64,000 bases of DNA from Escherichia coli (GTDB taxonomy: Bacteria > Pseudomonadota > Gammaproteobacteria > Enterobacterales > Enterobacteriaceae), in NCBI RefSeq assembly GCF_024700885.2, contig NZ_CP117016.1, one strand, 5' to 3'. The position numbers were made by a program, and so were the translations under genes. Each line of letters opens with the position of its first letter. The first letter of the stretch is position 1. The notes beneath the pieces were generated by a model that saw only the letters and a program-made list of their open reading frames with translations, was not told the DNA's origin and ran no database searches. Below, piece by piece: positions 23,234 to 42,700 of the stretch.

Positions 23234-24151
23234 ATGGTTCAGAAAATTTTGTCGGATAAGGTTATGAATGAAAGAACAAATGCGTATTACTCTTATTATC
23301 TTGGAGAGCGTAATATCTCCGTACTGCCCCTTAATGTTTATGATCCCCCGGAACGTTTTATCGCTTACATAAAAAAAAACAGAGAAAATCTGAACATCAC
23401 ACTTTCAGATTTTGAACTTGAACAAATCATTTCTGGTATGCGTCTGAAGGCACTGGCCTCCCTGGTGCCCCTGGAAAAAATATCCTGGATCGCGGGCAGT
23501 GAACGTGCATGCTTATTTTCCTGGTATCTGTTGATGCAGTTTATCCAGAATAACAGGACAAAAATAAGCGCAGACTTGCTTCAAAAGAATAAACTGTATC
23601 TTAAAGAAGAGTATTTAGAAGGGAATGCCTTCCCGTCGGACTCATCGACACAGTTCAGACAAATACTCAGAGTTCTCGATATTCTTTCTGATAAGAATTT
23701 GCGGGATGAGTGGATAATCCAGACCAAAGACAGATGGATGCGGGCATTTAAATCAAAGAGTCCTTTCAGTTACCTCCTCCCGGAGAACGAACATGAATGC
23801 ATATGGACATGGAATTATTTGAAGGGAAAAAATATTGCACTGGAAAAACTGGCCAGTTTTCCTGGTTCTGCTGATATTTACCACGCAATTCACCTTTCAT
23901 TTGACATATGGGTTACCTGTCCACTCACCTCACCTGACGATATAAAAAATTTCAGAAACAGTTTCAATAAGGCCAAGGCGCAGCGCAAGTACAAAAAAAT
24001 GCAGGAAGATAAAGTCAATGTACAGTTTTTTCTTGACGCAGAAACCAGGGCGCAGCTCAAAGAATTATCGAGGGTCAGAAGACTCAGTACCGGCGAAATG
24101 CTGCATGACCTGATTGTTGAAGAGTATAAAAGGTACCGACATTCCAGATAA
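23234..24151 (+). CDS. Hypothetical protein (305 aa)
   Basis: ORF with GGAGAAAGAGG RBS directly upstream of the GTPase gene; no family recognised. Confidence 0.4.
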   Translation: MVQKILSDKVMNERTNAYYSYYLGERNISVLPLNVYDPPERFIAYIKKNRENLNITLSDFELEQIISGMRLKALASLVPLEKISWIAGSERACLFSWYLLMQFIQNNRTKISADLLQKNKLYLKEEYLEGNAFPSDSSTQFRQILRVLDILSDKNLRDEWIIQTKDRWMRAFKSKSPFSYLLPENEHECIWTWNYLKGKNIALEKLASFPGSADIYHAIHLSFDIWVTCPLTSPDDIKNFRNSFNKAKAQRKYKKMQEDKVNVQFFLDAETRAQLKELSRVRRLSTGEMLHDLIVEEYKRYRHSR

Positions 24152-24235
24152 TTTCAGACATATATTATCTCCGTGAGTCCCCCACCACCTTTCCGGTGTG
24201 CGGGGGTTTTGTCTTTTTTCACCGGGAATACATGT

Positions 24236-25108
24236 ATGAATCCGTCTGATGCCATTGAGGCAATTGAAAAACCGCTCTCCTCCCTGCCTTACTCACTTTC
24301 CCGTCACATCCTGGAACATCTGCGCAAACTCACCAGTCACGAACCCGTGATTGGCATTATGGGTAAAAGCGGGGCCGGTAAATCCTCACTCTGTAATGCA
24401 CTGTTTCAGGGGGAGGTCACCCCGGTCAGTGATGTTCACGCCGGCACCCGGGAAGTGCGGCGCTTCCGTCTGAGTGGCCACGGTCACAGCATGATTATCA
24501 CTGACCTGCCCGGGGTGGGCGAGAGCCGGGACAGGGATGCAGAGTATGAAGCCCTGTACCGTGACATTCTGCCTGAACTTGACCTGGTACTGTGGCTGAT
24601 TAAAGCCGATGACCGTGCCCTGTCTGTGGATGAGTATTTCTGGCGACACATCCTGCACCGGGGACATCAGCAGGTGCTGTTTGTGGTGACGCAGGCCGAC
24701 AAAACGGAGCCCTGCCATGAATGGGATATGGCCGGCATTCAGCCTTCTCCCGCACAGGCACAGAACATTCGTGAGAAAACAGATGCGGTATTCCGGCTGT
24801 TCCGGCCCGTACATCCGGTTGTGGCCGTATCGGCCTGCACCGGCTGGGAACTGGATACGCTGGTCAGTGCGCTCATGACAGCGCTTCCCGACCATGCCGC
24901 CAGTCCCCTGATGACCCGCCTGCAGGACGAGCTGCGCACGGAATCTGTCCGGTCTCAGGCCCGTGAACAGTTTACCGGTGCGGTGGACCGGATATTTGAC
25001 ACGGCGGAGAGCGTCTGTATTGCCTCTGTTGCACGCACGGTTCTGCGTGCCGTCCGTGACTCGGTGGTCTCTGTTGCCCGCGCTGTATGGAACTGGATTT
25101 TCTTCTGA
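24236..25108 (+). CDS. YeeP/YfjP-family small GTPase (290 aa), apparently intact
   Basis: P-loop GIMGKSGAGKSSLCNALF, G3 DLPGVGES, G4 TQADK; lies upstream of flu as yeeP does in CP4-44. Confidence 0.75.
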   Translation: MNPSDAIEAIEKPLSSLPYSLSRHILEHLRKLTSHEPVIGIMGKSGAGKSSLCNALFQGEVTPVSDVHAGTREVRRFRLSGHGHSMIITDLPGVGESRDRDAEYEALYRDILPELDLVLWLIKADDRALSVDEYFWRHILHRGHQQVLFVVTQADKTEPCHEWDMAGIQPSPAQAQNIREKTDAVFRLFRPVHPVVAVSACTGWELDTLVSALMTALPDHAASPLMTRLQDELRTESVRSQAREQFTGAVDRIFDTAESVCIASVARTVLRAVRDSVVSVARAVWNWIFF

Positions 25109-25227
25109 ACACTCTGCCAGGGGAAATGCCTGATTACATTGCGTTAACCAACTGAAAACATGACACAAACACCTCATGCCCCTCCTGTTTCTCTTGCGTG
25201 ACTGCTCTGCTGTTAATAGAATAAAAC

Positions 25228-25263
25228 GATCGATAAAACAGGTATCGATCGTTACTATCGATC
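25228..25263 (+). promoter_or_regulatory. Three clustered GATC (Dam) sites in the flu leader: probable OxyR/Dam phase-variation switch
   Basis: GATC at 25228, 25247 and 25260, about 220 bp upstream of the flu ATG. Confidence 0.6.
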
Positions 25264-25480
25264 GTTTATAGTGGTTAATGGTCTGCGAAAAGGCAGCTGA
25301 ATCTCTTCATCATGCAGAACGGAATTGCACACAACGGACTGATACTTCTCTGGCGGATGAGAGAGGGGAAGCATTTATGTCCGGGAAAAACCACTTTATC
25401 TGACCATGCTGTTTTGTACCTGCCGGTATCCACATTTGTGGGTACCGGCTTTTTTATTCACCCTCTGTAAGGAAAAGCTG

Positions 25481-28327
25481 ATGAAACGACATCTGAACAC
25501 CAGCTACAGGCTGGTATGGAATCACATTACGGGCACCCTGGTGGTGGCTTCCGAACTGGCGCGCTCACGGGGAAAACGCACCGGTGTGGCGGTTGCGCTG
25601 TCTCTTGCTGCTGTCACGTCAGTCCCGGTACTGGCTGCTGACACGGTCGTACAGGCGGGAGAAACCGTGAGCGGCGGAACACTGACAAATCATGACAACC
25701 AGATTGTCTTCGGTACGGCCAACGGAATGACCATCAGTACCGGTCTGGAGTATGGGCCGGATAACGAGGCCAATACCGGCGGACAATGGATACAAAATGG
25801 CGGTATCGCCAACAACACTACTGTCACCGGTGGTGGTCTTCAGAGAGTGAATGCCGGAGGAAGCGTTTCAGACACGGTTATCAGTGCCGGAGGCGGACAG
25901 AGCCTTCAGGGGCAGGCAGTGAACACCACTCTGAACGGCGGTGAGCAGTGGGTACATGAAGGCGGGATTGCAACGGGTACCGTCATTAATGAGAAGGGCT
26001 GGCAGGCCGTCAAATCCGGCGCAATGGCAACCGACACGGTTGTGAATACCGGCGCGGAAGGGGGACCGGATGCAGAAAATGGTGATACCGGGCAGTTTGT
26101 TCGCGGAAATGCCGTACGTACCACTATCAATGAAAATGGTCGTCAGATTGTGGCTGCTGAAGGAACAGCAAATACCACTGTGGTTTATGCCGGCGGCGAC
26201 CAGACGGTACACGGGCATGCGCTGGATACCACACTGAATGGCGGTTACCAGTATGTGCACAACGGAGGCACAGCCTCTGACACGGTTGTAAACAGTGACG
26301 GCTGGCAGATTGTCAAGGAAGGTGGTCTGGCGGATTTCACCACCGTTAACCAGAAAGGCAAACTGCAGGTGAACGCCGGTGGTACAGCCACGAATGTCAC
26401 CCTGAAGCAGGGAGGCGCACTGGTCACCAGTACGGCGGCAACCGTCACCGGCAGCAACCGTCTGGGCAATTTCACTGTGGAAAACGGTAATGCTGACGGT
26501 GTTGTTCTGGAGTCCGGTGGTCGCCTGGATGTACTGGAGGGCCATTCAGCCTGGAAAACACTGGTGGATGACGGCGGAACCCTGGCAGTGTCTGCCGGTG
26601 GTAAGGCAACAGATGTCACCATGACATCCGGTAGTGCCCTGATTGCAGACAGTGGTGCCACTGTTGAGGGGACCAATGCCAGCGGTAAGTTCAGTATTGA
26701 TGGCACATCCGGTCAGGCCAGCGGACTGCTGCTGGAAAATGGCGGCAGCTTTACGGTTAATGCCGGAGGACTGGCCAGCAACACCACTGTCGGACATCGT
26801 GGAACACTGACGCTGGCTGCCGGGGGAAGTCTGAGTGGCAGAACACAGCTCAGTAAAGGTGCCAGCATGGTACTGAATGGCGATGTGGTCAGTACCGGCG
26901 ATATTGTTAACGCAGGGGAGATTCGCTTTGATAATCAGACGACACCGGATGCCGCGCTGAGCCGTGCTGTTGCAAAAGGCGACTCCCCGGTAACGTTCCA
27001 TAAACTGACCACCAGTAACCTCACCGGTCAGGGTGGCACCATCAATATGCGTGTTCGCCTTGATGGCAGCAATACCTCTGACCAGCTGGTGATTAATGGT
27101 GGTCAGGCAACCGGCAAAACCTGGCTTGCGTTTACAAATGTCGGAAACAGTAACCTCGGGGTGGCAACCTCCGGACAGGGTATCCGGGTTGTGGATGCAC
27201 AGAATGGCGCCACCACAGAAGAAGGTGCGTTTGCCCTGAGTCGCCCGCTTCAGGCCGGCGCCTTTAACTACACCCTGAACCGTGACAGCGATGAAGACTG
27301 GTACCTGCGCAGTGAAAATGCTTATCGTGCTGAAGTCCCCCTGTATACATCCATGCTGACACAGGCAATGGACTATGACCGGATTCTGGCAGGCTCCCGC
27401 AGCCATCAGACCGGTGTAAACGGTGAAAATAACAGCGTCCGTCTCAGCATTCAGGGCGGTCATCTCGGTCACGATAACAACGGCGGTATTGCCCGTGGAG
27501 CCACGCCGGAAAGCAGCGGCAGCTATGGCTTCGTCCGTCTGGAGGGTGACCTGCTCAGAACAGAGGTTGCCGGTATGTCTCTGACGACAGGGGTGCATGG
27601 TGCCGCAGGCCATTCTTCCGTTGATGTTAAGGATGATGACGGTTCCCGCGCCGGCACGGTCCGGGATGATGCCGGCAGCCTGGGCGGATACCTGAATCTG
27701 ACACACACGTCCTCCGGCCTGTGGGCTGACATTGTGGCACAGGGAACCCGCCACAGCATGAAAGCGTCATCGGACAATAACGACTTCCGCGCCCGCGGCT
27801 GGGGCTGGCTGGGCTCACTGGAAACCGGTCTGCCCTTCAGTATCACTGACAACCTGATGCTGGAGCCACAACTGCAGTATACCTGGCAGGGACTTTCCCT
27901 GGATGACGGCCAGGATAACGCCGGTTATGTGAAGTTCGGGCATGGCAGTGCACAACATGTGCGTGCCGGTTTCCGTCTGGGCAGCCACAACGATATGAGC
28001 TTTGGTGAAGGCACCTCATCCCGTGACACCCTGCGCGACAGTGCAAAACACCGTGTGCGTGAACTGCCGGTGAACTGGTGGGTACAGCCTTCTGTTATCC
28101 GCACCTTCAGTTCCCGGGGTGACATGAGCATGGGGACAGCCGCCGCCGGCAGTAACATGACGTTCTCACCGTCCCGGAATGGCACGTCACTGGACCTGCA
28201 GGCCGGACTGGAAGCCCGTGTCCGGGAAAATATCACCCTGGGCGTTCAGGCCGGTTATGCCCACAGTGTCAGCGGCAGCAGCGCTGAAGGTTATAACGGT
28301 CAGGCCACGCTGAATGTGACTTTCTGA
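25481..28327 (+). CDS. flu: Antigen 43 autotransporter adhesin (948 aa)
   Basis: [35 protein letters not shown]... signal/passenger repeats and C-terminal beta-barrel ending ...GQATLNVTF. Confidence 0.9.
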
Positions 28328-28397
28328 TAATCAGGTCACTCTCCTTCAGGCCCCGGTCATCATGACCGGGGCTTTTTACTTTCAGGGAGCAACAGAT

Positions 28398-28556
28398 ATG
28401 CCGGGTTGTACATCACGTTTATTGCCCGAAGGCCCTTTCTCACGCGAACAGGCTGTTGCCGTCAAAACAGCTTACCGCAATGTATTTACTGAAGATGACC
28501 AGGGAACATATTCCCGGCTGGTTATCCGTAATGCTGAAGGTCAGTTGCGCTGGTGA
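28398..28556 (+). CDS. Small hypothetical protein (52 aa)
   Basis: ORF with AGGGAG RBS between flu and the DUF932 gene. Confidence 0.35.
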
Positions 28557-28710
28557 TGCCGGAACACAGCTTAATACTCAGCTCGCCAGTTAAGGGCTTC
28601 TCAGACAATAAACGTCATTCATTTCATCTGTCAGGCCGCGTCTTCTCCGGGAGACGCAGCTTTTTCATTTATTACACCAGTAAATCGTAACCACCGATAA
28701 GGAGCAAATT

Positions 28711-29529
28711 ATGCGACTAGCCAGTCGTTTTGGTTATGCGAACCAGATACGCCGTGACCGTCCGCTGACACACGAAGAACTGATGCACTATGTTCCCAGT
28801 ATTTTCGGTGAAGACCGGCATACTTCCCGCAGTAAACGATATGCGTACATTCCCACCATCACCGTACTGGAAAGCCTGCAGCAGGAAGGTTTTCAGCCAT
28901 TCTTCGCCTGCCAGACCCGCGTGCGCGACCCGGGCCGCCGGGGATACACAAAACACATGCTGCGTCTGCGGCGGGCCGGAGAGATAAACGGAGAACATGT
29001 CCCTGAAATTATTCTGCTCAACTCTCATGACGGTACCTCCAGCTACCAGATGCTGCCGGGTTACTTCAGATTCGTCTGCCAGAATGGCTGCGTCTGCGGT
29101 CAGTCTCTGGGGGAAGTGCGTGTTCCACACCGGGGAAATGTGGTGGAGAAAGTTATCGAAGGGGCTTACGAAGTGGTGGGGGTTTTTGACCGGATTGAGG
29201 AAAAGCGTGATGCCATGCAGTCGCTGGTCCTGCCGCCACCGGCACGCCAGGCGCTGGCACAGGCGGCACTGACTTACCGTTATGGTGACGAACATCAGCC
29301 AGTCACCACCGCTGACATTCTGACGCCACGACGCCGGGAGGATTACGGTAAGGACCTGTGGAGTACTTATCAGACCATCCAGGAGAATATGCTGAAAGGC
29401 GGGATTTCCGGCCGCAGTGCAAAAGGAAAACGTATCCACACCCGTGCCATTCACAACATCGACACCGATATTAAGCTCAACCGCGCATTGTGGGTAATGG
29501 CAGAAACGCTGCTGGAGAGCCTGCGCTGA
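28711..29529 (+). CDS. DUF932-family protein (YfjQ/YafZ-like)
   Basis: Position and sequence typical of CP4-type prophage DUF932 proteins. Confidence 0.6.
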   Translation: MRLASRFGYANQIRRDRPLTHEELMHYVPSIFGEDRHTSRSKRYAYIPTITVLESLQQEGFQPFFACQTRVRDPGRRGYTKHMLRLRRAGEINGEHVPEIILLNSHDGTSSYQMLPGYFRFVCQNGCVCGQSLGEVRVPHRGNVVEKVIEGAYEVVGVFDRIEEKRDAMQSLVLPPPARQALAQAALTYRYGDEHQPVTTADILTPRRREDYGKDLWSTYQTIQENMLKGGISGRSAKGKRIHTRAIHNIDTDIKLNRALWVMAETLLESLR

Positions 29530-29870
29530 TGCAGCATGTCCCTGAAGGCGTGATTCAGGCACCAGAATCACCCGACGCCCCGGAGGCGCTGCCGGGGTGT
29601 CGTTCCATTTCTGATGATGACCTGTGCGCCTGGTGTACCCGTCTGCTTTACCGTCCCGGAGAAATCAGTCTGTGCAGACTGAGTATACAGGCAATGGCAT
29701 CTGGCCATCCGTCTGTGACCGGAACGGTTACGCGTACGGCTGTCCGGAATTTCAGCCGAATATCATTCATCCCTGATATTACCGGGTCATCACGGTCAGT
29801 GATGAACGTGATGTTGCCAGGTCCCGACCTTTACTCCCTCTCATTTATTCACATTACAAGGATTTCATAC

Positions 29871-30344
29871 ATGAAAACATTGTCTCAGAACACCACCTCT
29901 TCGGCCTGTGCACCGGAGACTGACCTGCAACAACTGGTTGCCACCCTCGTCCCTGATGAACAGCGCATCAGCTTCTGGCCGCAGCACTTTGGCCTCATTC
30001 CACAGTGGGTGACCCTGGAGCCCCGTGTCTTCGGCTGGATGGACCGTCTGTGCGAAGACTACTGCGGTGGTATCTGGAATCTGTACACCCTGAACAACGG
30101 CGGGGCATTTATGGCACCCGAACCGGATGACGATGATGACGAAACATGGGTACTGTTCAATGCCATGAACGGTAACCGCGCTGAAATGAGTCCGGAAGCT
30201 GCCGGCATTGCTGCCTGTCTGATGACGTACAGTCATCATGCCTGTCGTACGGAGTGTTATGCCATGACGGTCCATTATTACCGGCTGCGGGATTACGCCC
30301 TGCAGCATCCGGAATGCAGCGCCATTATGCGCATCATCGACTGA
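29871..30344 (+). CDS. Antirestriction protein, KlcA/ArdB-like (YfjX family)
   Basis: MKTLSQNTTSSACAPETDLQQLVATLVPDEQRISFWPQHFG...; upstream frame open to 29490 but homology begins here. Confidence 0.65.
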   Translation: MKTLSQNTTSSACAPETDLQQLVATLVPDEQRISFWPQHFGLIPQWVTLEPRVFGWMDRLCEDYCGGIWNLYTLNNGGAFMAPEPDDDDDETWVLFNAMNGNRAEMSPEAAGIAACLMTYSHHACRTECYAMTVHYYRLRDYALQHPECSAIMRIID

Positions 30345-30359
30345 ATGGAGAGAAGTACA

Positions 30360-30836
30360 ATGCAACAGCTTTCCTTTCTGCCCGGAGAGATGACGCCCGG
30401 CGAGCGCAGCCTCATTCAACGGGCCCTGAAAACCCTGGACCGCCATCTTCATGAACCCGGCGTGGCCTTCACCTCCACCCGTGCGGCACGAGAATGGCTG
30501 ATTCTGAACATGGCGGGACTGGAGCGTGAAGAGTTCCGGGTGCTGTATCTGAACAACCAGAATCAGCTGATTGCCGGTGAAACCCTCTTCACCGGCACCA
30601 TCAACCGCACGGAAGTCCATCCCCGTGAAGTGATTAAACGCGCCCTGTATCACAATGCCGCTGCTGTGGTGCTGGCACACAATCACCCGTCCGGTGAAGT
30701 CACACCCAGCAAGGCAGACCGCCTTATCACGGAACGTCTGGTACAGGCACTGGGCCTGGTGGATATCCGGGTGCCGGACCATCTGATAGTCGGTGGCAGC
30801 CAGGTTTTCTCCTTTGCCGAATATGGTCTGCTTTAA
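30360..30836 (+). CDS. RadC-like JAB-domain protein (YeeS/YkfG family)
   Basis: JAMM motif HNHPSGEVTPSKADRLIT; GGAGAG RBS. Confidence 0.75.
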   Translation: MQQLSFLPGEMTPGERSLIQRALKTLDRHLHEPGVAFTSTRAAREWLILNMAGLEREEFRVLYLNNQNQLIAGETLFTGTINRTEVHPREVIKRALYHNAAAVVLAHNHPSGEVTPSKADRLITERLVQALGLVDIRVPDHLIVGGSQVFSFAEYGLL

Positions 30837-30898
30837 CCCGTCACAACCACATCACACCTGTTTTCACTTTTATCTTCTGTCTTCAGAGGTATCCCACT

Positions 30899-31120
30899 AT
30901 GAAAATCATCACCCGTGGCGAAGCCATGCGTATTCACCGTCAGCATCCGGCATCCCGTCTTTTTCCGTTCTGTACCGGCAAATACCGCTGGCACGGCAGT
31001 GCTGAAGCGTATACCGGTCGTGAAGTGCAGGATATTCCCGGTGTGCTGGCCGTGTTTGCAGAACGCCGTAAGGACAGTTTTGGTCCGTATGTCCGGCTGA
31101 TGAGCGTCACCCTGAACTGA
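30899..31120 (+). CDS. YeeT-like DUF987 protein (73 aa)
   Basis: Position and size as yeeT upstream of cbeA. Confidence 0.6.
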   Translation: MKIITRGEAMRIHRQHPASRLFPFCTGKYRWHGSAEAYTGREVQDIPGVLAVFAERRKDSFGPYVRLMSVTLN

Positions 31121-31282
31121 TGTTCCGTCACCCGGAAAACGAGTACGACTGGCTGAGCTCAGACGCCGCTGTGGATGAGGCCCTGCTCATCAACGAATAC
31201 ACCTTCACCGAAGCCGGTCTGTGCACCGGCTGACCCGTCATCGTTAAACTATCATTCACCGATTTTCTGTGAGGATTTTATC

Positions 31283-31651
31283 GTGTCAGACACACTTTCC
31301 GGGACAACGCATCCCGATGACAATGACGACCATCCCTGGTGGGGACTACCCTGCACAGTGACGCCCTGTTTCGGCGCCCGTCTGGTGCAGGAGGGTAACC
31401 GGTTGCATTACCTTGCCGACCGTGCCGGTATCAGAGGCCGGTTCAGAGATGCGGATGCGTACCCTCTGGACCAGGCCTTTCCGCTGCTGATGAAACAACT
31501 GAAATTAATGCTCACCAGTGGTGAACTGAATCCCCGCCATCAGCATACCGTGACACTGTATGCGAAGGGGCTGACCTGTGAAGCCGACACCCTCGGCTCC
31601 TGTGGTTACGTTTATCTGGCTGTTTATCCGACACCTGAAACGAAAAAGTAA
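31283..31651 (+). CDS. cbeA: CbeA/YeeU-family antitoxin (122 aa), GTG start
   Basis: [50 protein letters not shown]...; GAGGA RBS before GTG. Confidence 0.75.
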
Positions 31652-31740
31652 ACCACCAGAATAACCTTCTGCTCCGGCCTGGTGTTTTCACCACGCCACT
31701 GTCCCATTTTTTATCTCTGCATATCAGGAAAATCTTCAGT

Positions 31741-32115
31741 ATGAAAACATTACCCGACACGCATGTACGGGAGGTATCGTGCTGCCCGTCTCCCGTCACC
31801 ATCTGGCAGACACTGCTCACCCGGTTACTGGACCAGCATTACAGCCTTACGCTGAATGACACACCGTTCGTGGATGAACGCGTGATTGAGCAGCATATTG
31901 AGGCAGGCATTTCACTGTGTGATGCAGTGAACTTTCTCGTGGAAAAATACGCACTGGTACGAACTGACCAGCCGGGATTCAGCGCAGGAGCCTCGTCGCA
32001 GTTAATCAACAGCATTGATATTCTCCGGGCTCGCCGGGCAACAGGCCTGATGACCCGCCACAACTACAGAACGGTGAACAATATCACCCTGGGTAAGTAT
32101 CCGGAGGCGAAATGA
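31741..32115 (+). CDS. cbtA: CbtA/YeeV-family toxin (124 aa)
   Basis: [43 protein letters not shown]...; follows the antitoxin. Confidence 0.75.
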
Positions 32116-32603
32116 TGAAACTGGCCCTGACACTGGAAGCCGACAGTGTTAACGTACAGGCACTGAATATGGGGCGAATTGTCGTTGACATTGATGGTGT
32201 TAATCTCGCTGAACTGATTAACATGGTCTGCGATAACGGCTACTCCCTTCGTGTTGTTGATGAATCTGACCGGACCTCAGCAGACTGCACGCCACCATTT
32301 GTTGCCCTTACCGGCATACGCTGCAGTACCGCACATATCACGGAAACGGACAACGCCTGGCTGTACTCGCTGTCACACCAGACCAGTGACTTCGGTGAAT
32401 CAGAATGGATTCATTTTACCGGTACCGGTTATCTGTTACGTACCGATGCGTGGTCATACCCGGTTCTGCGGCTTAAGCGCCTGGGGCTGTCAAAAACGTT
32501 CCGTCGTCTGGTCGTCACACTCATCCGGCGTTATGGTGTCAGTCTCATTCATCTGGATGCCAGTGCCGGATATCTGCCGGGTTTACCCACTTTCGACTGG
32601 TAA
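32112..32603 (+). CDS. YeeW-like hypothetical protein (163 aa)
   Basis: Start overlaps cbtA stop (ATGA); position as yeeW in CP4-type elements. Confidence 0.5.
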
Positions 32604-32619
32604 TCCGGAAATTCACAAC

Positions 32620-32796
32620 ATGAAATCATTAACCACGGAAACAGCGCTGGATATTCTGATTACGTGGCTGCAGGACAATATCGACTGCGAATCGGGAATT
32701 ATCTTCGACAACGATGAGGATAAAACAGGTTCGGCAGCACTGTTGCGCTGTATCGAACAGGCCAGGGAGGGTATCCGTACCCTGCGCCAACAGTAA
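32620..32796 (+). CDS. Small hypothetical protein (58 aa)
   Basis: MKSLTTETALDILITWLQDNIDCESGIIFDNDEDKTGSAALLRCIEQAREGIRTLRQQ. Confidence 0.4.
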   Translation: MKSLTTETALDILITWLQDNIDCESGIIFDNDEDKTGSAALLRCIEQAREGIRTLRQQ

Positions 32797-33706
32797 CTTT
32801 TGCACCAGAACCAGTGAAGATCACTCACCCGATTTCACTTCCCTGACGTCAGCCTGAACACGGCTGGCGTTTTCATTTATAAACAGAAAGGAAAAATGAT
32901 GATGTCAGATACCACACTCTCCCGCCCGGAGGTGGTCAGCGGGCATACGGACGTTATCTATTCCACCTCAGTCTGCCACATTCTGGCTGTACGAAAGAGT
33001 ACACTGTTGCCAATCGACACAATTATCCGGCATCAAGTAAGCGATATCAGTTAACCGATATAGATGGGGAAGATGCTTTTATCCGGATTGGTTCTATCGC
33101 GATGGTGCGAGTACCACTTGATGCAATGGAGCCTGTCGAGGAAGATGACGAGTAACAGAGCTCGGTATCTCAATCAGGACCTGATTGTCCTGGTTCGATG
33201 CCGAAAACCAGTGATTTTTCGTGTTGGTATCTGTGTTGGTATAGGATGGTGTTGTTTATTATTAACAATTTTAAATCATGAGGTTAAATCGCATGTTTGA
33301 GTCCGGCCTTCGCACCACATCGTATGCAAATCGAGTCGCTCAAGGGCGGCTTTTTTTGTGCCTGTGTTTTCACTACTTTGTTTGTATGTAACGCTGATAA
33401 TCTAAGAACTTCGGAAGCCCCATTCCCATCAATGATGTTCATTCATCATCCTGAAAATTAAGTAGATATAAAACTTCATTGCCTTGGTCTAATGGCTCAG
33501 GAAATAGATTGCATTTAGCGAGTGGCATTCTTAATGTGCCATTGTTTAGCCATGAAACGATGCGTAAAATTGCTGATTTTATGTGTCAAAGGCCCGCAAC
33601 CGGAGATGTCCTTACTTCAAGGATCAACCACTATTGGCGTATCCTTTTACTATCTTGATTCAATTCAGCAGGTTATCGTCAAAAGTACAGCGAAGAGAGA
33701 GAAAAG

Positions 33707-36598
33707 ATGATTGGTACAACACCTTATCATGCGAAATATTTTGCGCATGAACTTTCCATTCTCCATTCAAACAATGGGGTGGACCGTCTGTCTCAATCGC
33801 TGTTTGATGCAAGCGTAGATCTAAATCCTCATCAAATTGAGGCGGCTCTTTTTGCTATTGAAAATCCGCTAAGCAAAGGTGTTGTGCTTGCCGATGAAGT
33901 TGGTTTAGGTAAAACCATTGAAGCGGGGTTAGTGCTTTGCCAGTTGTGGGCTGAAAGAAAACGTAAACTGTTGATCATTTGTCCTGCTTCACTGCGTCGC
34001 CAATGGGCGAGCGAGTTACAGGAAAAGTTCAATCTACCTTCTCAGGTGTTGGACGCGAAAACGTATAGCCAGCTTCAAAAAGAAGGGATCCATAATCCCT
34101 TAAATAATAAATCGATCACTATCATGTCATACCACTATGCTGCTCGGTTAGAAGAAAAATTGGTGGCTGAAATGTGGGATCTGGTTGTTATCGACGAAGC
34201 CCATAAACTGCGTAATGCTCATCGAGAAAGTAACAAAATGGGGCAAGCGTTAAAGCGTGCGCTTGATGGGCGGAAAAAATTACTACTGACCGCAACGCCT
34301 TTACAGAATTCGTTAATGGAACTGTATGGCATGTCGACGCTTATAGATGAACATACCTTCGGCGAAGTTAAAGCGTTCAGAAAGCAATATATGCAGGCAG
34401 ATAGCGATATTGCGGAGTTGAAGGGGCGATTGTCGCGTTTTATCAAACGAACTTTACGCAAGAATGTGCTGGAGTACATCAAGTATACAGAACGTAAAGC
34501 GATCACTATTCCTTTCTATCCGAGCGAACAGGAGCAGGATCTTTATGAACGCGTACAAAAATTGCTTGAACGTGAGGATAGCTATGCCTTACCAAAACGA
34601 CACCGGCATCTGACGGGGCTTATTCTCAGAAAGCTACTTTCCTCAAGTACGAAAGCTGTATTGAATAACTTGCAGATCCTTAAGAGTCGTTTAGAAAGGT
34701 TAAAGCTGGAAGGTATCGTTGAAGATGATATGAACATCATCCAACAGATCATAATGGATGACGATCTTGAAGATGACATCGTGGAAGATGCCGAATCAGT
34801 GGCTTTAGATACCGAGTGCAAAGTTGTCGATTCAGACGCGCTTCAGGCAGAAATCAATGAGCTGGAATCACTCATTGTCAAAGCAGAACAGATTGGCACT
34901 GATACCAAATCAAAAGAGTTGCTTTCTGGCCTGGAGCAAGGTTTTGCACAGCTTGCCGAAATGGGGGCTGCAAAAAAAGTCATCATCTTCACGGAGTCAA
35001 TGCGAACTCAACAGTATCTTGCACATTTTCTGGAAAACAATGGCTACCAGGGGAAAGTAGTAACCTTTAGTGGCACAAACAATACACCGCAGGCAAACAA
35101 GATCTACCAGCAATGGCGCGAGGAATATCAGGGATCTTCTCGTATTACCGGGTCGGCGCAAATTGATAAACGCTCGGCTTTGATCGACCACTTCAAAGAT
35201 CATGCTGAAATCATGATAGCTACAGAAGCTGCAGCTGAAGGGGTGAACCTGCAATTTTGTTCGCTACTGATCAATTACGATTTACCCTGGAACCCACAAC
35301 GCATTGAACAGCGTATTGGACGTTGTCACCGATACGGGCAAAAATTTGATGTGGTTGTTATTAACTTCCTCAATCAGCGAAACCAGGCCGATCAACGCGT
35401 TCTTGAACTCTTAACTGAAAAGTTCAGCCTGTTTGATGGCGTGTTTGGCGCATCGGATAGTGTGCTTGGCAGCATAGAAAATGGTGTGGATTTTGAAAAA
35501 AGGATCCAGTCAATTTATGAGTCATGCCGTACCCCCGAGGAGATAGAGCTGGCTTTTGAAAGGTTGCAGAAAGAGCTGGAAGATGAAATCAATCTCAAGA
35601 TGCAGAAGACGCAAGAACAGTTGCTTGAGCATTTTGATGAAGATATTCACGATATCCTTAAAATAAGGCTTGATGAAGCTCGGGAGCGTCTGGATAAAGT
35701 CGGTCGTTGGTTTTGGGCCGTGACCTGTCAGCAGCTCAAACAATATGCTGATTTTGATCATGAGCATCATCGTTTCACTTTACGTGAATCAGTAAATGAA
35801 CTGCCTGTCGGGCAGTACCAGCTGTTGCGCAAAGATGGTAGGCAAAATAGTGCGTTACAAATGCAGGATCACCACAGTTTTGCATATCGGATCAATCATC
35901 CGCTGGGTGAGTACGTCATTGAGGGGGCTAAGGTCCAGGAGACGAAAACAGCTGAAGTCATCTTCGATTACAGTAACCACACAACGAAAGTCTCGGTGGC
36001 TGAGCAGCTGAAAGGGCAATCAGGGTGGTTAACACTAAATTTGCTTACTGTTGATGCGTTTAACAGGCAGCAATTTTTAGTCTTTACCGCAAAAACTGAC
36101 AACGGACGTGTGGTAGATGGTGAAGCTTGTAAACGTCTGTTCAACTTGTCTGCAATAACCAACGAAAAGCTGGATAATTCGGCAAGTTCAGATGCATTAC
36201 CTGATGACTTGATCTTACTCAAGAACAGGCAAATTGACGCCAGACTTGCGGAAGTTCTGGAGCAGAACAATGTCCTTTTTGAAGCTGAAAGAGATAAGCT
36301 GGAAAAATGGGCTGAAGATATGATCTTTGCGGCGGAAGAAGCATTACGCGATACCAAAATGCAAATCAAGTCGTTAAAGCGAGAAGCCAGACTGGCGCAA
36401 TCGATGGAAGAACAAAAGCAAAACCAGGAAAAGCTGAAGCTACTGGAACGGCAGCAGAAACGCCAACGTATGGAAATTTTTGACATTGAAGATGAGATCG
36501 CTGACAAGCGGGATGAACTCATCAGTGCCCTTGAAGAGCGGATGAAGCAAAAAACGGATATCACCGAGCTTTTTTCCATCCGCTGGAAAGTTATTTAA
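33707..36598 (+). CDS. SNF2-family DEAH-box ATPase/helicase (963 aa) with C-terminal coiled-coil tail
   Basis: Walker A DEVGLGKT (33893-33916), motif II VVIDEAHKLRN (DEAH 34193-34204), motif III LLLTATPLQNS, helicase-C NLQFCSLLINYDLPWNPQRIEQRIGRCHRYGQ; AGAGAGA RBS. Confidence 0.85.
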   Translation: MIGTTPYHAKYFAHELSILHSNNGVDRLSQSLFDASVDLNPHQIEAALFAIENPLSKGVVLADEVGLGKTIEAGLVLCQLWAERKRKLLIICPASLRRQWASELQEKFNLPSQVLDAKTYSQLQKEGIHNPLNNKSITIMSYHYAARLEEKLVAEMWDLVVIDEAHKLRNAHRESNKMGQALKRALDGRKKLLLTATPLQNSLMELYGMSTLIDEHTFGEVKAFRKQYMQADSDIAELKGRLSRFIKRTLRKNVLEYIKYTERKAITIPFYPSEQEQDLYERVQKLLEREDSYALPKRHRHLTGLILRKLLSSSTKAVLNNLQILKSRLERLKLEGIVEDDMNIIQQIIMDDDLEDDIVEDAESVALDTECKVVDSDALQAEINELESLIVKAEQIGTDTKSKELLSGLEQGFAQLAEMGAAKKVIIFTESMRTQQYLAHFLENNGYQGKVVTFSGTNNTPQANKIYQQWREEYQGSSRITGSAQIDKRSALIDHFKDHAEIMIATEAAAEGVNLQFCSLLINYDLPWNPQRIEQRIGRCHRYGQKFDVVVINFLNQRNQADQRVLELLTEKFSLFDGVFGASDSVLGSIENGVDFEKRIQSIYESCRTPEEIELAFERLQKELEDEINLKMQKTQEQLLEHFDEDIHDILKIRLDEARERLDKVGRWFWAVTCQQLKQYADFDHEHHRFTLRESVNELPVGQYQLLRKDGRQNSALQMQDHHSFAYRINHPLGEYVIEGAKVQETKTAEVIFDYSNHTTKVSVAEQLKGQSGWLTLNLLTVDAFNRQQFLVFTAKTDNGRVVDGEACKRLFNLSAITNEKLDNSASSDALPDDLILLKNRQIDARLAEVLEQNNVLFEAERDKLEKWAEDMIFAAEEALRDTKMQIKSLKREARLAQSMEEQKQNQEKLKLLERQQKRQRMEIFDIEDEIADKRDELISALEERMKQKTDITELFSIRWKVI

Positions 36599-36603
36599 TT
36601 GAT

Positions 36604-39600
36604 TTGAAAGAGAAAATAATGAGTAAGTACAACGAATTAGTTAAGAAGCTAAAAGAAATTTTTCAGATTGATCGACCAGAACTGGATTTCGGTATTTATC
36701 GTATTTTAAATGCACGTGCTGATGAAATTAACGACTATCTGGATAATAAGCTGAAGGCCAAAATCCAGTCTGCGCTGGCGGATGCAGGAAATGCCAATAA
36801 ATCAGAATTAGAACATCAGTTGCAACTGACAATAAAAGCGGCAACTGATGCGGGTGTGGACCCTGCTGATAGCCCGAAAGTACAGGAGCTTAAAAAGCAA
36901 CTGGCGGCTATGGCATCCGGAGCAAATGAGCATGAAAATGCAGTATTTTCCCATCTGCTGACTTTCTTTTCGCGTTATTATGACAACGGCGATTTTATCA
37001 GCAAACGCCGTTATAAAGGTAATACCTACGCCATCCCTTATTCTGGCGAAGAAGTGATGTTGCACTGGGCAAATAAGGACCAGTACTACATTAAAAGCGG
37101 TGAAAACTTTGCTAATTATTCATTTAAATTAGATGATGGTCGTAAAGTTAGCTTTAAATTGCTCGCAGCGGACACAGCAAAAGATAACCGTAAAGATAAT
37201 GAATTAGATCGCTGCTTTGTACTTATTGAGCCGCATGTTCGTACCAAAATTGATGAAGAAGGCGATGAGTACGAACAAGAATATAAGCCAGTAGAAGTGG
37301 TGAAAACTTCATCTGTGGTTGACGGTAAACTCGTTGAAACAGAAGAGTTAGTTATTCACTTCGAATATAAGGCCATGAAAAAGGGCACTAAGCAGGATGC
37401 TTTAGTGCAGTCCGCTATTTCAACAATTCTGGCTGATAAAACAGTTCAACAGCATTGGGTTGATCTTGCTAAACGTGCGCCAACAGAAAAAAATCCGTCA
37501 CGTACAGAGTTGGAGCGTCATCTTACAACTTATACCCAGCGTAATACAGCAGACTACTTTATTCATAAAGATCTCGGTGGTTTTTTAACTAACGAACTGG
37601 ATTTTTATATTAAAAATGAAGTAATGAATCTCGATAATGTGCAAAATGCAGAAGTGTTTGCCAATATTGAGAAACAATTGCGCATGATTCAATGTTTGCG
37701 TACTGTTGCGCTGGAACTCATTGCATTTTTGGCACAAATTGAGAATTTCCAGAAGAAACTTTGGACTAAGAAGAAGTTTGTTGTTTCAAGTAATTACTAT
37801 ATTACTATGGACAAAATAAGTTCAGAGTTTTACAGTGAAATAATTAATAATGAAAAAATAGTCCAAGAATGGATTGAATTAGGCATCTTAGATGAGAAGC
37901 CATCTACCTCTGATGTGGAGTTGCTCAAGTTTGCAACAGTTAATTTATCTCATTTAAACGGAGATCTAAGGAAAAAAATATTAAATAGTATCAATGATAT
38001 TGACGATAATGTTGATGGCGTTTTTATTAATGGTGATAATTATCAAGCGTTAAATCTTTTGAAGAAAAAATATAATTCCGTAATTGATTGTGTCCATATA
38101 GATCCACCATATAACACAGATACTAGTGGTTTTTTATATAAAAATAGCTTTAAGCATTCAAGTTGGCTGAGTATGATGGATAGCCGTTTGCTTTTTGTTA
38201 AAAATTTACTCAGTGAAAATGGTGTATTTTTTTGTCATATTGATGAAAATGAATATGAGCGACTTTATTTAATTAATAAACAGTTAGGTCTTATCGATGC
38301 AGGGACAATTATTTGGGATAAACGCAATCCCATGAATGGTGGTAGTGGCATTGCGATTCAACATGAATATACTACTTGTTTTACAAAGAACATGATTTCT
38401 ATTAATAAGAAAAATGAGAATGTATTAGAAATACTCGAATATGCAAAATTAATTAAGAATAAATATCCTGTAATTAACAGTGAAGCAAAGAAAAAATTTT
38501 ATGATTGGGTAACAAAGAATAAAAAACTTACTGGAGGTGAACAAGCTTACAAATATATCGATGAGAAAGGTCGAGTGTACCAGAGTGTCAGCCTCCGTGC
38601 CCCAGAGCCAAGGACTGACAAGAAATTCTATATACCATTAATTCATCCAGTTACCGGGAAACCATGCGCTATGCCACCAAATGGTTTTTCTCGTACCCCA
38701 GAAACATTAAAAGATATGATGGATAAGGGGGATATACTATTTGGTGTTGATGAAACAACGCAACCTAGACAGAAAGCATATTTATATGCTGACGCTAAAA
38801 AGCAAATAACATCAATAATTCAGGATGCTAAAAAAGGAAAAACTCAAACAACTCATCTTGGAATTGATTTTCCTTATTGTCACTCAACTTCTTTATATAA
38901 TTATTTAATTGGGAGTGCATCTCATAATAAAAATGAGATAATATTAGATTTTTTTGCTGGTTCAGGAACAAGTGGCCACTCAGTCATAGAGTTGAATCGT
39001 AAGGATGCGGGTTCAAGGAAATATATACTTGTTGAACAGGGGGAGTATGCACAAAATGTAACTTTAAGCAGGTTGAGAAAAGTTATATTCAGTAGCAATT
39101 GGAAAGATGGTAAAGCTATGGATTCAACGACAGGCTCATCTCATATACTTAAAGTTATGAAAATAGAAAGTTACGAAGATGTATTAAATAGCCTTCGATT
39201 TGAACAACAAAAAGAAATAAAAGATCTTTTTGATACAGTGAATGAATCAGTAGCAAATGAGTATTTAATAAAATATATGCTTGAAACAGAAAGCAAAGGT
39301 TCACTACTCAGTACTGATAATTTCAAAAAACCATTTAACTACGAAATGGATATTGCGACGGATTCCGCCGGTGCCACTGAGCGTAAAAACATCGATTTAG
39401 TTGAAACTTTCAACTATCTCATTGGTTTACATGTGAAATCCATCGAATCCAATATCGAACGTGGCTATGTGCGTGTTGAAGGAATGCTACCAACAGGCGA
39501 GCGTACCCTTATTCTGTGGCGCGATTGCGACAAGATCGGTTATGAAGAATTGAATAAATATGCCAACCGATTCGATTTATATGCAAAAGAAAACACGTTC

Positions 39601-39741
39601 GACGTTATCTATATCAATGGCGATCATAACTTACCTACCGCCTTTACTGTTGATGAAGAAGACGGCGAGATTGTTCGTAGCCTGAAAATCCGCCAGATCG
39701 AACCTGAATTCTTGAACCTGATGTTTGCGGAGGAGGTTTAA
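36604..39741 (+). CDS. Large beta-class DNA methyltransferase (N6-adenine/N4-cytosine type; 1045 aa) with about 490-aa N-terminal extension
   Basis: Motif IV HIDPPYNTD (38101-38112) precedes motif I ILDFFAGSGTSG (38951-38977), the order seen in Type III Mod; starts 6 bp after the SNF2 stop. Confidence 0.8.
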   Translation: MKEKIMSKYNELVKKLKEIFQIDRPELDFGIYRILNARADEINDYLDNKLKAKIQSALADAGNANKSELEHQLQLTIKAATDAGVDPADSPKVQELKKQLAAMASGANEHENAVFSHLLTFFSRYYDNGDFISKRRYKGNTYAIPYSGEEVMLHWANKDQYYIKSGENFANYSFKLDDGRKVSFKLLAADTAKDNRKDNELDRCFVLIEPHVRTKIDEEGDEYEQEYKPVEVVKTSSVVDGKLVETEELVIHFEYKAMKKGTKQDALVQSAISTILADKTVQQHWVDLAKRAPTEKNPSRTELERHLTTYTQRNTADYFIHKDLGGFLTNELDFYIKNEVMNLDNVQNAEVFANIEKQLRMIQCLRTVALELIAFLAQIENFQKKLWTKKKFVVSSNYYITMDKISSEFYSEIINNEKIVQEWIELGILDEKPSTSDVELLKFATVNLSHLNGDLRKKILNSINDIDDNVDGVFINGDNYQALNLLKKKYNSVIDCVHIDPPYNTDTSGFLYKNSFKHSSWLSMMDSRLLFVKNLLSENGVFFCHIDENEYERLYLINKQLGLIDAGTIIWDKRNPMNGGSGIAIQHEYTTCFTKNMISINKKNENVLEILEYAKLIKNKYPVINSEAKKKFYDWVTKNKKLTGGEQAYKYIDEKGRVYQSVSLRAPEPRTDKKFYIPLIHPVTGKPCAMPPNGFSRTPETLKDMMDKGDILFGVDETTQPRQKAYLYADAKKQITSIIQDAKKGKTQTTHLGIDFPYCHSTSLYNYLIGSASHNKNEIILDFFAGSGTSGHSVIELNRKDAGSRKYILVEQGEYAQNVTLSRLRKVIFSSNWKDGKAMDSTTGSSHILKVMKIESYEDVLNSLRFEQQKEIKDLFDTVNESVANEYLIKYMLETESKGSLLSTDNFKKPFNYEMDIATDSAGATERKNIDLVETFNYLIGLHVKSIESNIERGYVRVEGMLPTGERTLILWRDCDKIGYEELNKYANRFDLYAKENTFDVIYINGDHNLPTAFTVDEEDGEIVRSLKIRQIEPEFLNLMFAEEV

Positions 39742-39743
39742 GA

Positions 39744-42700
39744 ATGGCTAAAAAACCGACCACCGGTAAAGCTGTTAAAAAAGAGACAAACAGCAAACTG
39801 AGCTTTCATAAGCAACTGGTTTTGAACCGCTTTATGTTCCATTTTTTTAAAGATGGCACATTGCAAGGTTTAAAAAATCGGTTAGGTGAAGATCGCTTTG
39901 AAGGCATCCATGAAGATGGCCAAAGCTTGTTCTTCCATGAGCTGAGTAACTATTTATTCGAGGTCGATCTTATCGATCTCGATGAACTGCGTCGTTACGA
40001 TCTCAATATCGTACAGCACTGGCAGCAGATAACTGAGCACCGTAATCGCAAAGAAGACACCGTGCTGAATATGAAATATTTTCAGTACTTGTCGCTTCTG
40101 TTTACCGAGATCTACCTGGACTGGTACTTCAATCGTAAACAGCAATTACTCGATGGGCTAAATAACGAGCTGGCAGCATACAATGCTGAAAATGATAAAA
40201 CAGCAAAAGACCGGGCTAATCAGTTCAAATCATACATTCTAGATGACTTGAATAAACTTGCATACTGGAACGCTACCGGTTCGGGTAAAACACTGCTATT
40301 GCATGTCAATATTTTGCAATATTTACATTATTTCCAGAACGGTAATACCCACCATTACCCGGATAAAATCATCCTGCTTACGCCGGATGAACGCCTGTCG
40401 AAGCAACATTTAGATGAGCTGGAAAACTCAGGATTTACCCAATACCAGTTATTCGATAAGAGTAAATCTGCGCCCTTCAAAGGCACGATTGAAGTTATTG
40501 ATATCAATAAACTTGCCGATGAAATGGGTGACAAAACTGTTGCCGTTGAGGCATTTGAAGGCAACAATCTGGTTCTGATTGATGAAGGGCATAAAGGCAC
40601 CGGAAGTGCTGCTGGTGCCTGGATGCGCCGTCGTGACAAATTAACACGTGACGGATTTGCGTTTGAATATTCAGCAACTTTTGGCCAGGCAGTAGCCGGT
40701 GGCAATAATGTTGAGGCAGTTGAAACAGAAATTCAGAAGAAAAAAGCAAAGCTGCTTTTTGAAACAACGGCCTTAGGTAAACTGAACGAAGAAGAGTTAG
40801 CGCAAATAGCATTAACCAGCGAAGAAAAACGAGATGCGCGTATTCAGGCGACGCGAGAGGTCTATGGAAAATCGATTCTGTTCGATTACTCCTATAAATT
40901 CTTCTATGAGGATGGTTATGGTAAAGAATCACTGATTCTTAACCTTAATCCTGAAGAGGATAAAAAAGATGAGCGTCGGTATGAGTATTTTACCGCGTGT
41001 TTGCTCAGCTTTTATCAGCAACAATATTTATTCAATAAGAATAAAGAAAAATTAAGTGAATTTAATATCGAAAAACCGCTGTGGGTTTTTGTCGGTAATA
41101 CGGTAAGTGGTGAAGATTCAGACATTCACGCAGTATTGCGTTTTTTAGCATGGTTTTTAAACCACGAAACGCAGGCAAAAGCGTGGATTAACGATCTCAT
41201 TAAAAATAAAGCGCGAATCCTCGATACCAAAGAGCGTAACATTTTTGAAAATCGCTTTACTGCACTAATGAACGCTCCGGAAGATATCTACGCAGATATT
41301 CTTTCTCGCTTGTTTAACACCACTCACTCTGGTCAGCGACTGCGAGTTCTGAATTTAATAGGCAGTAAAGGTGAACTGGCATTACAGGTTGGTGAGGCCG
41401 AACCGTTTGGCCTTATCAATATTGGTGATGCACCGTCTCTTTACAAAATGTGTGAAGAGGATACGACATTTGATTATCAGAGAGATGATTTTGCAAAGTC
41501 ACTCTTTCATACGTTAAATGACAAAGACTCGCGACTACATATTTTGATCGGCTCGCGAAAATTTACTGAAGGCTGGAGCAGTTGGCGCGTCTCAACGATG
41601 GGATTGCTCAATATGGGCCGTGGAGAAGGTTCACAGATCATTCAGTTATTTGGTCGTGGCGTACGCCTTAAAGGTCGCAATTATTCTTTGAAACGCAGTA
41701 CACCCGGTGAGCGTCCGAAAGGGTTGCATCTGGAAAAATTAGAGACACTGAATGTATTCGGTGTACGTGCCGATTACATGGCAACCTTTAAACAATACCT
41801 GGAAGATGAAGGGATTACGCCAAGTGACGAGATCCTTGAGCTGAATTTTGAAACTCGGCCAAATATGCCAGCAACCAGGCTTAAAACACTTAAGCTTAAA
41901 GATGGTTATAAAGATAATCAAAGACTCGGCTTTAAACGTGTCTATTTTCCCGAATTGTATGAAGTTCCTGCTGATTTTCAGGGGAAAATTAAGCAGCCGC
42001 ATATTAAGCTGGACTTATACCCGAAACTTGAGTCGATTGATACCAGCAGAAAAGGGGACAATACTCCGGTTAACGTGCGCAATGAAGCGAAGTTAGATTA
42101 TAAAATCATTAGTGCATTTGATTTTGATCGGCTTTATCTCGCCATTCAGAATTATAAACTACAACGCGGCTGGTCAAATTTACGTGTGGATAAACAACGT
42201 TTGATCGACTTTTGTACCGGTAAGACAAAGATCGGAAATAGTTGGTATACCCTTTTGATTCCAGCTTCAGAGCTTGAGATTAAGCAATATGCAGATATTG
42301 CTAAGCAGGAAGATATTATGCTTCGTCTGCTGACTGATTATACTGATCGCTTTTACAACACCTTGAAAAATGCTTATGAAGGTCAGTTTTATGAAGTCAC
42401 GCAGGTGAAAGAAGATGATCCTGGTATGATCAAAATGTACCATTTCGAGATCGAAGAAACTGATGATGGGTTGGCTTATGCCAGTCGGCTGGAACAATTA
42501 CAACAATTGGTCATCGACGGCGAAATCGGTAAAGCAAAATCCTGGAGTGCATCCGGGATGGTTGCTATTACCTTTGATAAACATCTCTATTACCCGCTTC
42601 TTTCGATTGAAAAAAATGCCAATATACCGCTAAAAATGCGACCGGCAGCACTTGGTGCGCCAAGCGAGATTACTTTTGTTCAGGATCTTCAGTCTTTTGT

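Follow-up and report, generated by a model that had tools for sequence, protein, structure and literature searches.

A conserved N-terminal module in the long Mod protein of the Eco86II Type III restriction–modification system and its possible role as a frame for assembly with Res

Introduction

The question raised by this locus is what purpose is served by the long N-terminal part of an unusually large modification protein (Mod) that belongs to a Type III restriction–modification (RM) system. The protein is encoded by Escherichia coli, within a stretch of 64,000 nucleotides of contig NZ_CP117016.1 (RefSeq assembly GCF_024700885.2) that was analysed as a whole and is referred to below as the window; all coordinates are positions in it. 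The gene concerned, mod (36619..39741, + strand), specifies a protein of 1040 amino acids (aa). An earlier inspection of the letters alone (the original prediction) had drawn attention to about 490 residues that precede the catalytic motifs and carry no recognisable methyltransferase (MTase) motif, and had suggested that they could be a sensor, a partner-interaction domain or an unusual target-recognition domain (TRD).

Most of this region proves to be a widespread and strongly conserved module (residues 1–386, 36619..37776; hereafter the N-module). Its proposed function is deduced from comparisons of sequences and loci: the N-module and the C-terminal tail of Mod may form a constant frame that couples an exchangeable methylase cassette to the system's own restriction subunit, Res, a reading to which a probability of about 0.5 is given.

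Identity of the operon

The mod gene is the second of three co-directional genes on the + strand, which occupy a low-GC island (GC about 0.40, with an operon mean of 0.399, versus 0.49–0.53 in the flanks) that adjoins the fim/nan region. It is preceded by a gene for a 963-aa superfamily 2 (SF2) helicase-ATPase of SNF2/DrmD-like type (33707..36598, +; assigned with Pfam, NCBIfam and PADLOC), and followed by res (39744..43124, +), whose 1126-aa product combines an SF2 helicase with a C-terminal PD-(D/E)xK nuclease, as judged from Pfam, PADLOC and motifs. The complete 9.7-kb operon is 100% identical with that of several complete E. coli genomes, E24377A among them.

This operon has been published before: it is Eco86II, a Type III system known from E. 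coli strain NCTC86 (Murray et al. 2021, PLoS One, PMC8259958), and the SNF2-like gene, which ends 20 nt 5' of the mod ATG, is the 'third gene' of that system. The DNA specifying the TRD (38200–38900) shows 100% identity in strains NCTC86, F9792 and B4103-1, all of which are given in the same paper as systems that produce N4-methylcytosine (m4C) at GAGCC. The SNF2 and Res proteins are identical to the NCTC86 copies, Res being R.Eco86II, while Mod is one residue apart from M.Eco86II (F778V) and one residue apart from the Mod proteins of B4103-1 and F9792 (D869G). The first of these differences (38950–38952) falls in motif I, where the window has F (DFFAGSG) and NCTC86 has V, the family consensus DYFAGSG being nearer to F; at the second (39223–39225) the window has D, and B4103-1 and F9792 have G. 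Two PADLOC models that derive from catalogued, REBASE-derived RM systems match end to end, MTase_III PDLC03646 with Mod (residues 1–1040 against profile positions 1–1057) and REase_III PDLC03654 with Res. From PADLOC, the NCTC86 comparison and PMC8259958, Mod is an allele of M.Eco86II, a beta-class N4-cytosine methyltransferase for GAGCC.

Since the TRD DNA, SNF2 and Res are identical and Mod differs by a single residue, the published experiments on Eco86II apply to the operon of the window. They established that M.Eco86II alone, with no partner required, converts the fourth base of GAGCC to m4C, and that the partially purified enzyme, which contained Mod and Res, cuts plasmids with head-to-head sites in part, at a distance of about 25 bp 3' of the recognition site (PMC8259958). 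The Type III assignment is borne out by the proteins themselves: Mod has motif IV (DPPY) ahead of motif I (FAGSG), a PF01555 core and a hypervariable TRD between the two halves, and the adjacent Res has SF2 helicase motifs followed by a C-terminal PD-(D/E)xK nuclease. The SNF2 gene directly 5' of mod, together with identity to the type system, places the operon in the Eco86II/BspHIV subgroup.

The operon and its Mod protein are thus already published and biochemically characterised, and do not represent a new kind of system. The N-terminal region of Mod is never mentioned in PMC8259958 (the term 'N-terminal' has no occurrence in it), and neither the mosaic of frame and cassette nor the co-variation with Res set out below is described there. 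Literature searches for later work on Eco86II and BspHIV, or for a named three-gene variant of Type III systems, turned up nothing beyond Murray et al. 2021. What the present analysis adds are the domain boundaries, an N-module with a predicted fold without known relative, and an organisation into frame and cassette with accompanying co-variation with Res.

Start, length and boundaries of Mod

The open reading frame (ORF) spanning 36604–39741 was confirmed, as were its catalytic motifs, which had been placed at about residues 500 and 780 and lie at 500 and 784 when counted from the TTG with which it begins (1045 aa). Translation truly begins at the ATG at 36619, which gives 1040 aa, is used by RefSeq (WP_000049824.1) and coincides with the MSKYNEL/MSKFNEL residues at which the homologues begin. 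In ATG numbering, used throughout, motif IV (DPPY) occupies residues 495–498 (38101–38112, +) and motif I (FAGSG) residues 779–783 (38953–38967, +).

The only Pfam match on Mod is N6_N4_Mtase (PF01555), at residues 489–812 (E 6e-29). The closest solved relative is the 644-aa Mod of EcoP15I, residues 90–472 of which align with residues 462–810 of the query (E 1.7e-39). From this alignment, Mod exceeds a canonical Mod by about 370–430 aa at the N-terminus and by about 58 aa at the C-terminus. The long region that lacks MTase motifs is therefore real, but the figure of 490 was too large, because the 60–120 residues before DPPY correspond to an ordinary N-terminal domain (NTD) plus the MTase fold. 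Behind the N-module lies a variable alpha/beta linker (residues 387–470, 37777..38028, +) that, to judge from allele divergence and a structure model, packs on the MTase domain and belongs to the exchangeable cassette described below. It is followed by the MTase core (38029..39108, +; Pfam and the EcoP15I alignment) with the inserted TRD (residues 561–755, 38299–38883, +), and then by a C-terminal domain (residues 831–1040, 39109..39738, +) that is conserved across the family and is without a Pfam match in the query and in 78 aligned homologues.

The extension would be no more than an artefact if the start had been wrongly called or two genes had become fused. The mechanical ORF does begin at a TTG, five codons too early, and many database entries are about 380–450 aa long, although many of these short entries are labelled as partial at source or come from short contigs. 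This explanation is very improbable and was rejected: the reading frame is continuous, RefSeq gives 1040 aa in many complete genomes, and most of the listed full-length homologues, from many phyla, are about 950–1170 aa long. In addition, cloned M.Eco86II is active, and its plasmid of 5.9 kb, versus 4.7 kb for the M.CinI clone (PMC8259958), agrees with about 3 kb of inserted mod DNA, the size of the vector being an estimate.

The extension had also been described as the most AT-rich part of the operon, which did not hold. The GC content of residues 1–386 is 0.393, close to the operon mean, and the minimum lies further downstream, in residues 387–895 (0.316), with the lowest value of 0.284 at positions 38000–38499.

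Distribution, conservation and predicted fold of the N-module

With the N-terminal 464 aa as query, 2359 representatives of 50%-identity clusters were matched, 863 of them with E-values below 1e-30, and so the extension is no chance ORF. Most of the 150 matches listed for this query are about 1000–1100 aa in length. By a pattern scan with one genome per species, the N-module region is encoded in at least 556 genomes, and its carriers are spread over the Pseudomonadota, Chlorobiota, Chloroflexota, Desulfobacterota, Planctomycetota, Verrucomicrobiota, Bacteroidota, Firmicutes and Actinomycetota, together with one candidate-phylum bacterium.

To measure conservation, 78 full-length homologues were aligned, and the mean identity with the query was taken for each segment. 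By this measure the N-terminal extension (0.43) is as conserved as the catalytic core (0.42–0.44), whereas the TRD falls to 0.15, and residues 121–160 and 301–340 are the conservation peaks of the entire protein. Invariant polar or charged residues within the N-module are R119, D125, N152, D154, Q155, K159, D312, H316, E326, E375 and K386.

In an AlphaFold2 (AF2) model of residues 1–471, built from an 87-row alignment with a predicted local distance difference test score (pLDDT) of 85, three parts of the N-module are predicted ahead of the small alpha/beta linker: a long helical hairpin (residues 34–120), a highly conserved loop with a beta-rich subdomain (residues 121–255, the beta-rich part at about 155–254), and a helical subdomain (residues 256–386, the helical part at 259–383) that is closed by a basic patch with the motif FQKKLWxKKKF (residues 377–387). 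The full-length protein was modelled with a pLDDT of 81.6 and a predicted template modelling score (pTM) of 0.80. This pTM value, the sole and indirect pointer in that direction, hints that the N-module may pack against the C-tail. The linker (387–470) has pLDDT values above 90 in the full-length model, and its strands at 386–396 are lost when the N-terminal part is modelled on its own. The invariant stretch 139–158 has a pLDDT below 50 and is predicted to be disordered.

Searches of the N-terminal region gave no domain or fold. Pfam detected nothing there in the query or in any of the 78 aligned homologues, NCBIfam and PHROGs searches were equally negative, and comparisons with the PDB by sequence and by profile gave matches confined to the MTase part of Mod. 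When the N-terminal model was compared with AFDB50 using Foldseek, only long methyltransferases of the same family were among the best 50 matches. Domain and structure searches of the kind suggested in the original prediction thus gave no match outside the family before about residue 460, and no described domain family or solved fold was found for residues 1–460. The N-module is best regarded, from these searches and the models, as a family-specific and apparently non-catalytic unit of about 386 residues (about 430–460 if everything ahead of the MTase fold is counted) with a predicted fold that has no known relative.

Several of these features would suit a non-specific DNA-binding or sensing domain, which might act as a clamp on flanking DNA, as a detector of phage cues or as an allosteric regulator of methylation and restriction. 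They include the many invariant polar and charged residues from R119 to K386, the basic patch at 377–387 and the invariant loop that is predicted to be disordered alone, and a predicted fold without known relative leaves room for a new activity. The distribution of charge points elsewhere. Residues 1–386 have a net charge of -5 and the C-terminal domain one of -16, versus +11 for the DNA-binding core plus TRD, so that the two terminal parts are neutral to acidic and the middle is basic, which fits protein–protein rather than DNA contacts. Signatures of nucleotide binding, nuclease activity or ligand binding were not detected by Pfam, NCBIfam, PADLOC or PHROGs, and canonical Type III enzymes reach the same cleavage distance of about 25 bp without such a domain (PMC8259958, PMC4490356). 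A role in DNA binding or sensing is accordingly considered possible, though unlikely.

An exchangeable cassette within mod

Some part of the operon is matched by 192 E. coli genomes and mod by 166, but only 33 share the TRD of the window, while most of the 166–192 matching genomes share its N-terminus. The alleles of E. coli strains RS571 and XH990 (loci L083 and L084) are mosaics in this respect: they are 97–100% identical to Mod of the window over residues 1–386 and about 900–1040, and only 5–57% identical over residues 387–895. Strain XH990 carries a different cassette and yet has the same Res protein as the window. The linker 387–470 diverges along with the cassette among the E. coli alleles.

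Constant flanks on either side of a divergent segment indicate that in mod an exchangeable cassette is set into a constant frame. This frame comprises the N-module and the last ~145 residues (the C-tail, residues 896–1040, 39304–39738, +), the latter delimited by co-variation and by the point, about residue 900, beyond which the E. coli alleles agree. The cassette itself (37777–39303) is the AT-rich part of the gene, and with it the complete catalytic core is exchanged together with the TRD.

The same pattern bears on the suggestion that the extension might be an unusual, or second, TRD, for which the sole support was its position outside the catalytic motifs and its lack of recognisable MTase motifs. 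It is conserved to 0.43 where the true TRD reaches only 0.15, it stays constant (97–100%) between E. coli alleles with different cassettes, and it is common to most of the matching E. coli genomes when the TRD is common to so few. The TRD explanation is rejected on this conservation pattern and retains next to no probability.

Co-variation of the N-module with Res

Divergence was compared across 32 species-level loci by Spearman correlation (rho) with Mantel tests; comparisons with SNF2 drew on 19 loci, those in which SNF2, mod and res are all present. The N-module varies closely with Res (rho 0.88, Mantel p<=0.001) and with the C-tail of Mod (0.86), and the C-tail in turn varies with Res (0.84). 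No such relationship exists between the N-module and the catalytic core of its own protein (rho -0.01, p 0.53) or the TRD (0.03). Among the options named at the outset, a partner-interaction domain is now the best supported, the N-module tracking Res and not its own core, and a TRD is contradicted by conservation and by the constancy among alleles.

The partner with which it co-varies is itself divergent. The Pfam ResIII domain of Res lies at residues 167–293, leaving about 165 residues ahead of the helicase core, and 32 sequences all keep the Walker A motif GSGKT179 as well as DEGH280 and PD1023...DPK1043 without variation. A phmmer search against all PDB chains, including EcoP15I Res, gave no detectable similarity. 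Of the 55 loci with enough sequence, 52 have a Res of this family on the strand of mod, no more than about 6 kb downstream of its start, and in two of the remaining three the distance is greater.

Extra genes that add up to 1–1.9 kb stand between mod and res in about 19 of 80 related loci (L008, L010–L012, L017, L018, L020, L022, L024, L025, L027, L032, L034, L035, L038, L040, L055, L059 and L062). By eye, these resemble DUF1016/YhcG-like genes, RhuM-like genes, or an AAA ATPase with a partner of about 215 aa (DUF4276-like), and they recall the cargo genes that are frequent inside Type I RM operons.

The SNF2-like ATPase as an alternative partner

The other candidate partner is the SNF2/DrmD-like ATPase encoded upstream, for which the N-module might be a docking site, recruiting a third subunit to the Mod–Res complex. 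The protein contains Pfam domains SNF2-rel_dom (residues 42–289) and Helicase_C (437–544) and ends in a long coiled-coil-like tail. It scores 666.7 bits against NCBIfam DISARM_DrmD_b, under the cut-off of 950, and the PADLOC DrmD match is confined to residues 31–680. According to Murray et al. (PMC8259958), the association of this helicase-like ATPase gene with mod was counted in more than 500 genomes, and among the systems of that paper the third gene occurs only in those with a long Mod, Eco86II and BspHIV. Gene order was examined in the 63 loci with enough upstream sequence, in a stretch reaching at most 10 kb to either side of the match to the N-module: a SNF2 homologue is immediately upstream in 40, further upstream in 4 and downstream of Res in 5, so that it stands elsewhere in the locus in about nine more cases, and it is not in the sequence in 14. 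The order Mod–Res–SNF2 occurs in Pasteurellaceae, Neisseria, Moraxella and Cardiobacterium (L043, L046, L047, L048, L050 and L051), one of these six loci, L047 (Pasteurellaceae), having too little upstream sequence and standing outside the 63. It is only in the loci with this order that the N-terminal hairpin is shortened to about 49 residues, from about 95 elsewhere, and the helical hairpin of Mod and the coiled-coil-like tail of SNF2 would be plausible contact surfaces.

Weighed against this are the 14 loci in which SNF2 is missing from the sequence and the architecture of the N-module is unchanged: hairpin length and motif spacing are equal with and without SNF2 in the locus, which rules out a dependence of this architecture on the presence of SNF2. 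The N-module also tracks the adjacent SNF2 only weakly (rho 0.44) compared with Res (0.81 in the same 19 loci, 0.88 in all 32), and simple physical linkage does not explain this, as it would predict the opposite order. Peptides of SNF2 were not detected in partially purified active Eco86II (PMC8259958). In E. coli F9792 (L086, positions 1–899) the SNF2 gene is annotated as frameshifted and Mod is intact; GAGCC m4C is listed for this strain (EcoF9792I, PMC8259958), which fits with methylation being independent of SNF2. Docking of SNF2 is therefore regarded as the less probable use of the N-module, with perhaps a minor chance of being correct, and the role of this ATPase was explicitly left unexplained by Murray et al. 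(PMC8259958).

A proposed frame for assembly with Res

On the reading favoured here, residues 1–386 and the last ~145 residues would bracket the cassette (387–895) with its catalytic core and TRD. The N-module and C-tail would keep the Mod dimer together and dock it onto the divergent Res of the family, and new specificity cassettes could enter without breakage of the Mod–Res complex. Physical contact of the frame with Res, a role in dimerisation, or both, are inferred from the position of the N-module, its conservation, its co-variation with Res and the precedent of EcoP15I. In that enzyme a helical NTD of 47 aa helps to form the interface between the two Mod subunits, and the C-terminal domain of one Mod contacts Res (PMC4490356).

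Several points weigh against a frame of this kind. The co-variation of the frame with Res could stem from a need for conserved flanks in the recombination of cassettes, rather than from co-adaptation of proteins, and it was measured on few loci (32, or 19 where SNF2 is concerned). The most conserved stretch, 139–158, is modelled at low pLDDT, which fits an interface that becomes ordered on binding but equally a contact with a ligand or DNA. Lastly, Mod alone methylates fully in E. coli (PMC8259958), and so the N-module is not required to recruit a partner for methylation.

A bolder proposal would be that the N-module is a regulatory hub with a new fold, at which the SNF2 ATPase, Res or both would set the balance between methylation and restriction, the invariant disordered loop 139–158 being the switch. 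This is thought improbable, more so than either DNA binding or docking of SNF2. If true, it would make Eco86II-type systems a hybrid of classical Type III RM and the helicase-plus-methylase defences DISARM, BREX and ARMADA.

The model built on this organisation into frame and cassette would explain how specificity, and possibly the chemistry of methylation, can change while the Mod–Res machine stays intact. Whatever its function, the N-module is a widespread and strongly conserved domain without a Pfam entry or a solved or predicted structural relative, and the boundaries at 386/387 and about 895/900 can serve in truncation, chimera and structural work.

Comparison with other systems

The canonical EcoP15I/EcoPI Mod (PDB 4ZCF; Gupta et al. 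2015, PMC4490356) resembles that of Eco86II in its beta-class core, in having motif IV before motif I and in a TRD placed between the halves, and the systems share a mod–res operon and cleavage about 25 bp downstream. They differ in size and in the parts outside the core. The NTD of EcoP15I consists of 47 aa of helices (aa 14–60) in a protein of 644 aa (PMC4490356), whereas the 1040-aa Mod of Eco86II has about 386–430 aa of an unrelated predicted fold before the core and a different C-terminal domain of 210 aa after it. Mod of the window thus departs from the canonical architecture with a short NTD of about 47 aa and a total of 600–650 aa, and the PADLOC models of canonical-size Mod align with it from about residue 460 onward only. 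The chemistry also differs, with m4C in Eco86II and N6-methyladenine in EcoP15I, and the extra SNF2 gene is found in Eco86II only.

One PADLOC model of intermediate size, MTase_III PDLC03638 (an 816-aa profile), shares part of the N-module: residues 89–195 of the query correspond to profile positions 44–153 (E 3.8e-7), and residues 246–470 to positions 157–384 (E 2.8e-23). Compared as a profile, it has a shorter N-terminus, which leaves the first ~90 residues of the query (most of the hairpin) unmatched, and the alignment stops at query residue 947.

Specificity genes of RM systems, such as the hsdS genes of Type I and phase-variable mod alleles of Type III, commonly have conserved flanks around a variable, recombining centre that sets specificity. 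The mod gene of Eco86II is similar in that conserved flanks bracket a variable centre. It differs in that the exchanged segment takes in the entire catalytic core in addition to the TRD and in that the flanks are large domains (386 and ~145 aa) instead of short conserved stretches.

DISARM class 1, ARMADA and BREX likewise have, within defence islands, a gene for a DrmD-, BrxHII- or ArmA-like SNF2 ATPase directly beside one for a large DNA methyltransferase. The methyltransferases of those systems are PglX-like with an NPPW motif and are partnered by YprA/DrmA-DUF1998 helicases, whereas Eco86II has a beta-class PF01555 enzyme and a Type III Res. PglX-like NPPW methyltransferases belong to the gamma class. 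DISARM class 1, which is made up of DrmA, DrmB (DUF1998), usually DrmC, a PglX-like DrmMI and DrmD, was rejected as an assignment for the operon, as PADLOC gave no matches to DrmA, DrmB, DrmC or DrmMI for Mod or Res, the DrmD_b score is below its cut-off, and a beta-class MTase stands beside a Type III Res. ARMADA, for which the defining pair is a PglX-like methyltransferase with an NPPW motif and ArmC, a helicase of YprA-like type (preprint 10.1101/2025.09.15.676423), was likewise rejected, the window having a DPPY beta-class PF01555 methyltransferase and a ResIII-type helicase with a PD-DxK nuclease.

Genes surrounding the operon

Downstream of res, at a distance of about 660 bp and on the other strand, is a gene for an HNH restriction endonuclease that binds phosphorothioated DNA (43786–44658, -; NCBIfam NF045808, 438 bits where the cut-off is 180), and it forms a small defence cluster with the Eco86II operon. 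Between it and res lies a hypothetical ORF of 100 aa (43171–43473, -), which is annotated in E24377A and NCTC86. On the other side, the annotation upstream of the operon, at about 21500–33200, indicates a CP4-like prophage remnant that includes the Ag43 autotransporter, an antirestriction protein, a JAB-domain (RadC-like) protein, a YeeU/CbtA toxin–antitoxin pair and DUF genes. With this remnant upstream, the RM operon appears to be cargo at the edge of an integrated element.

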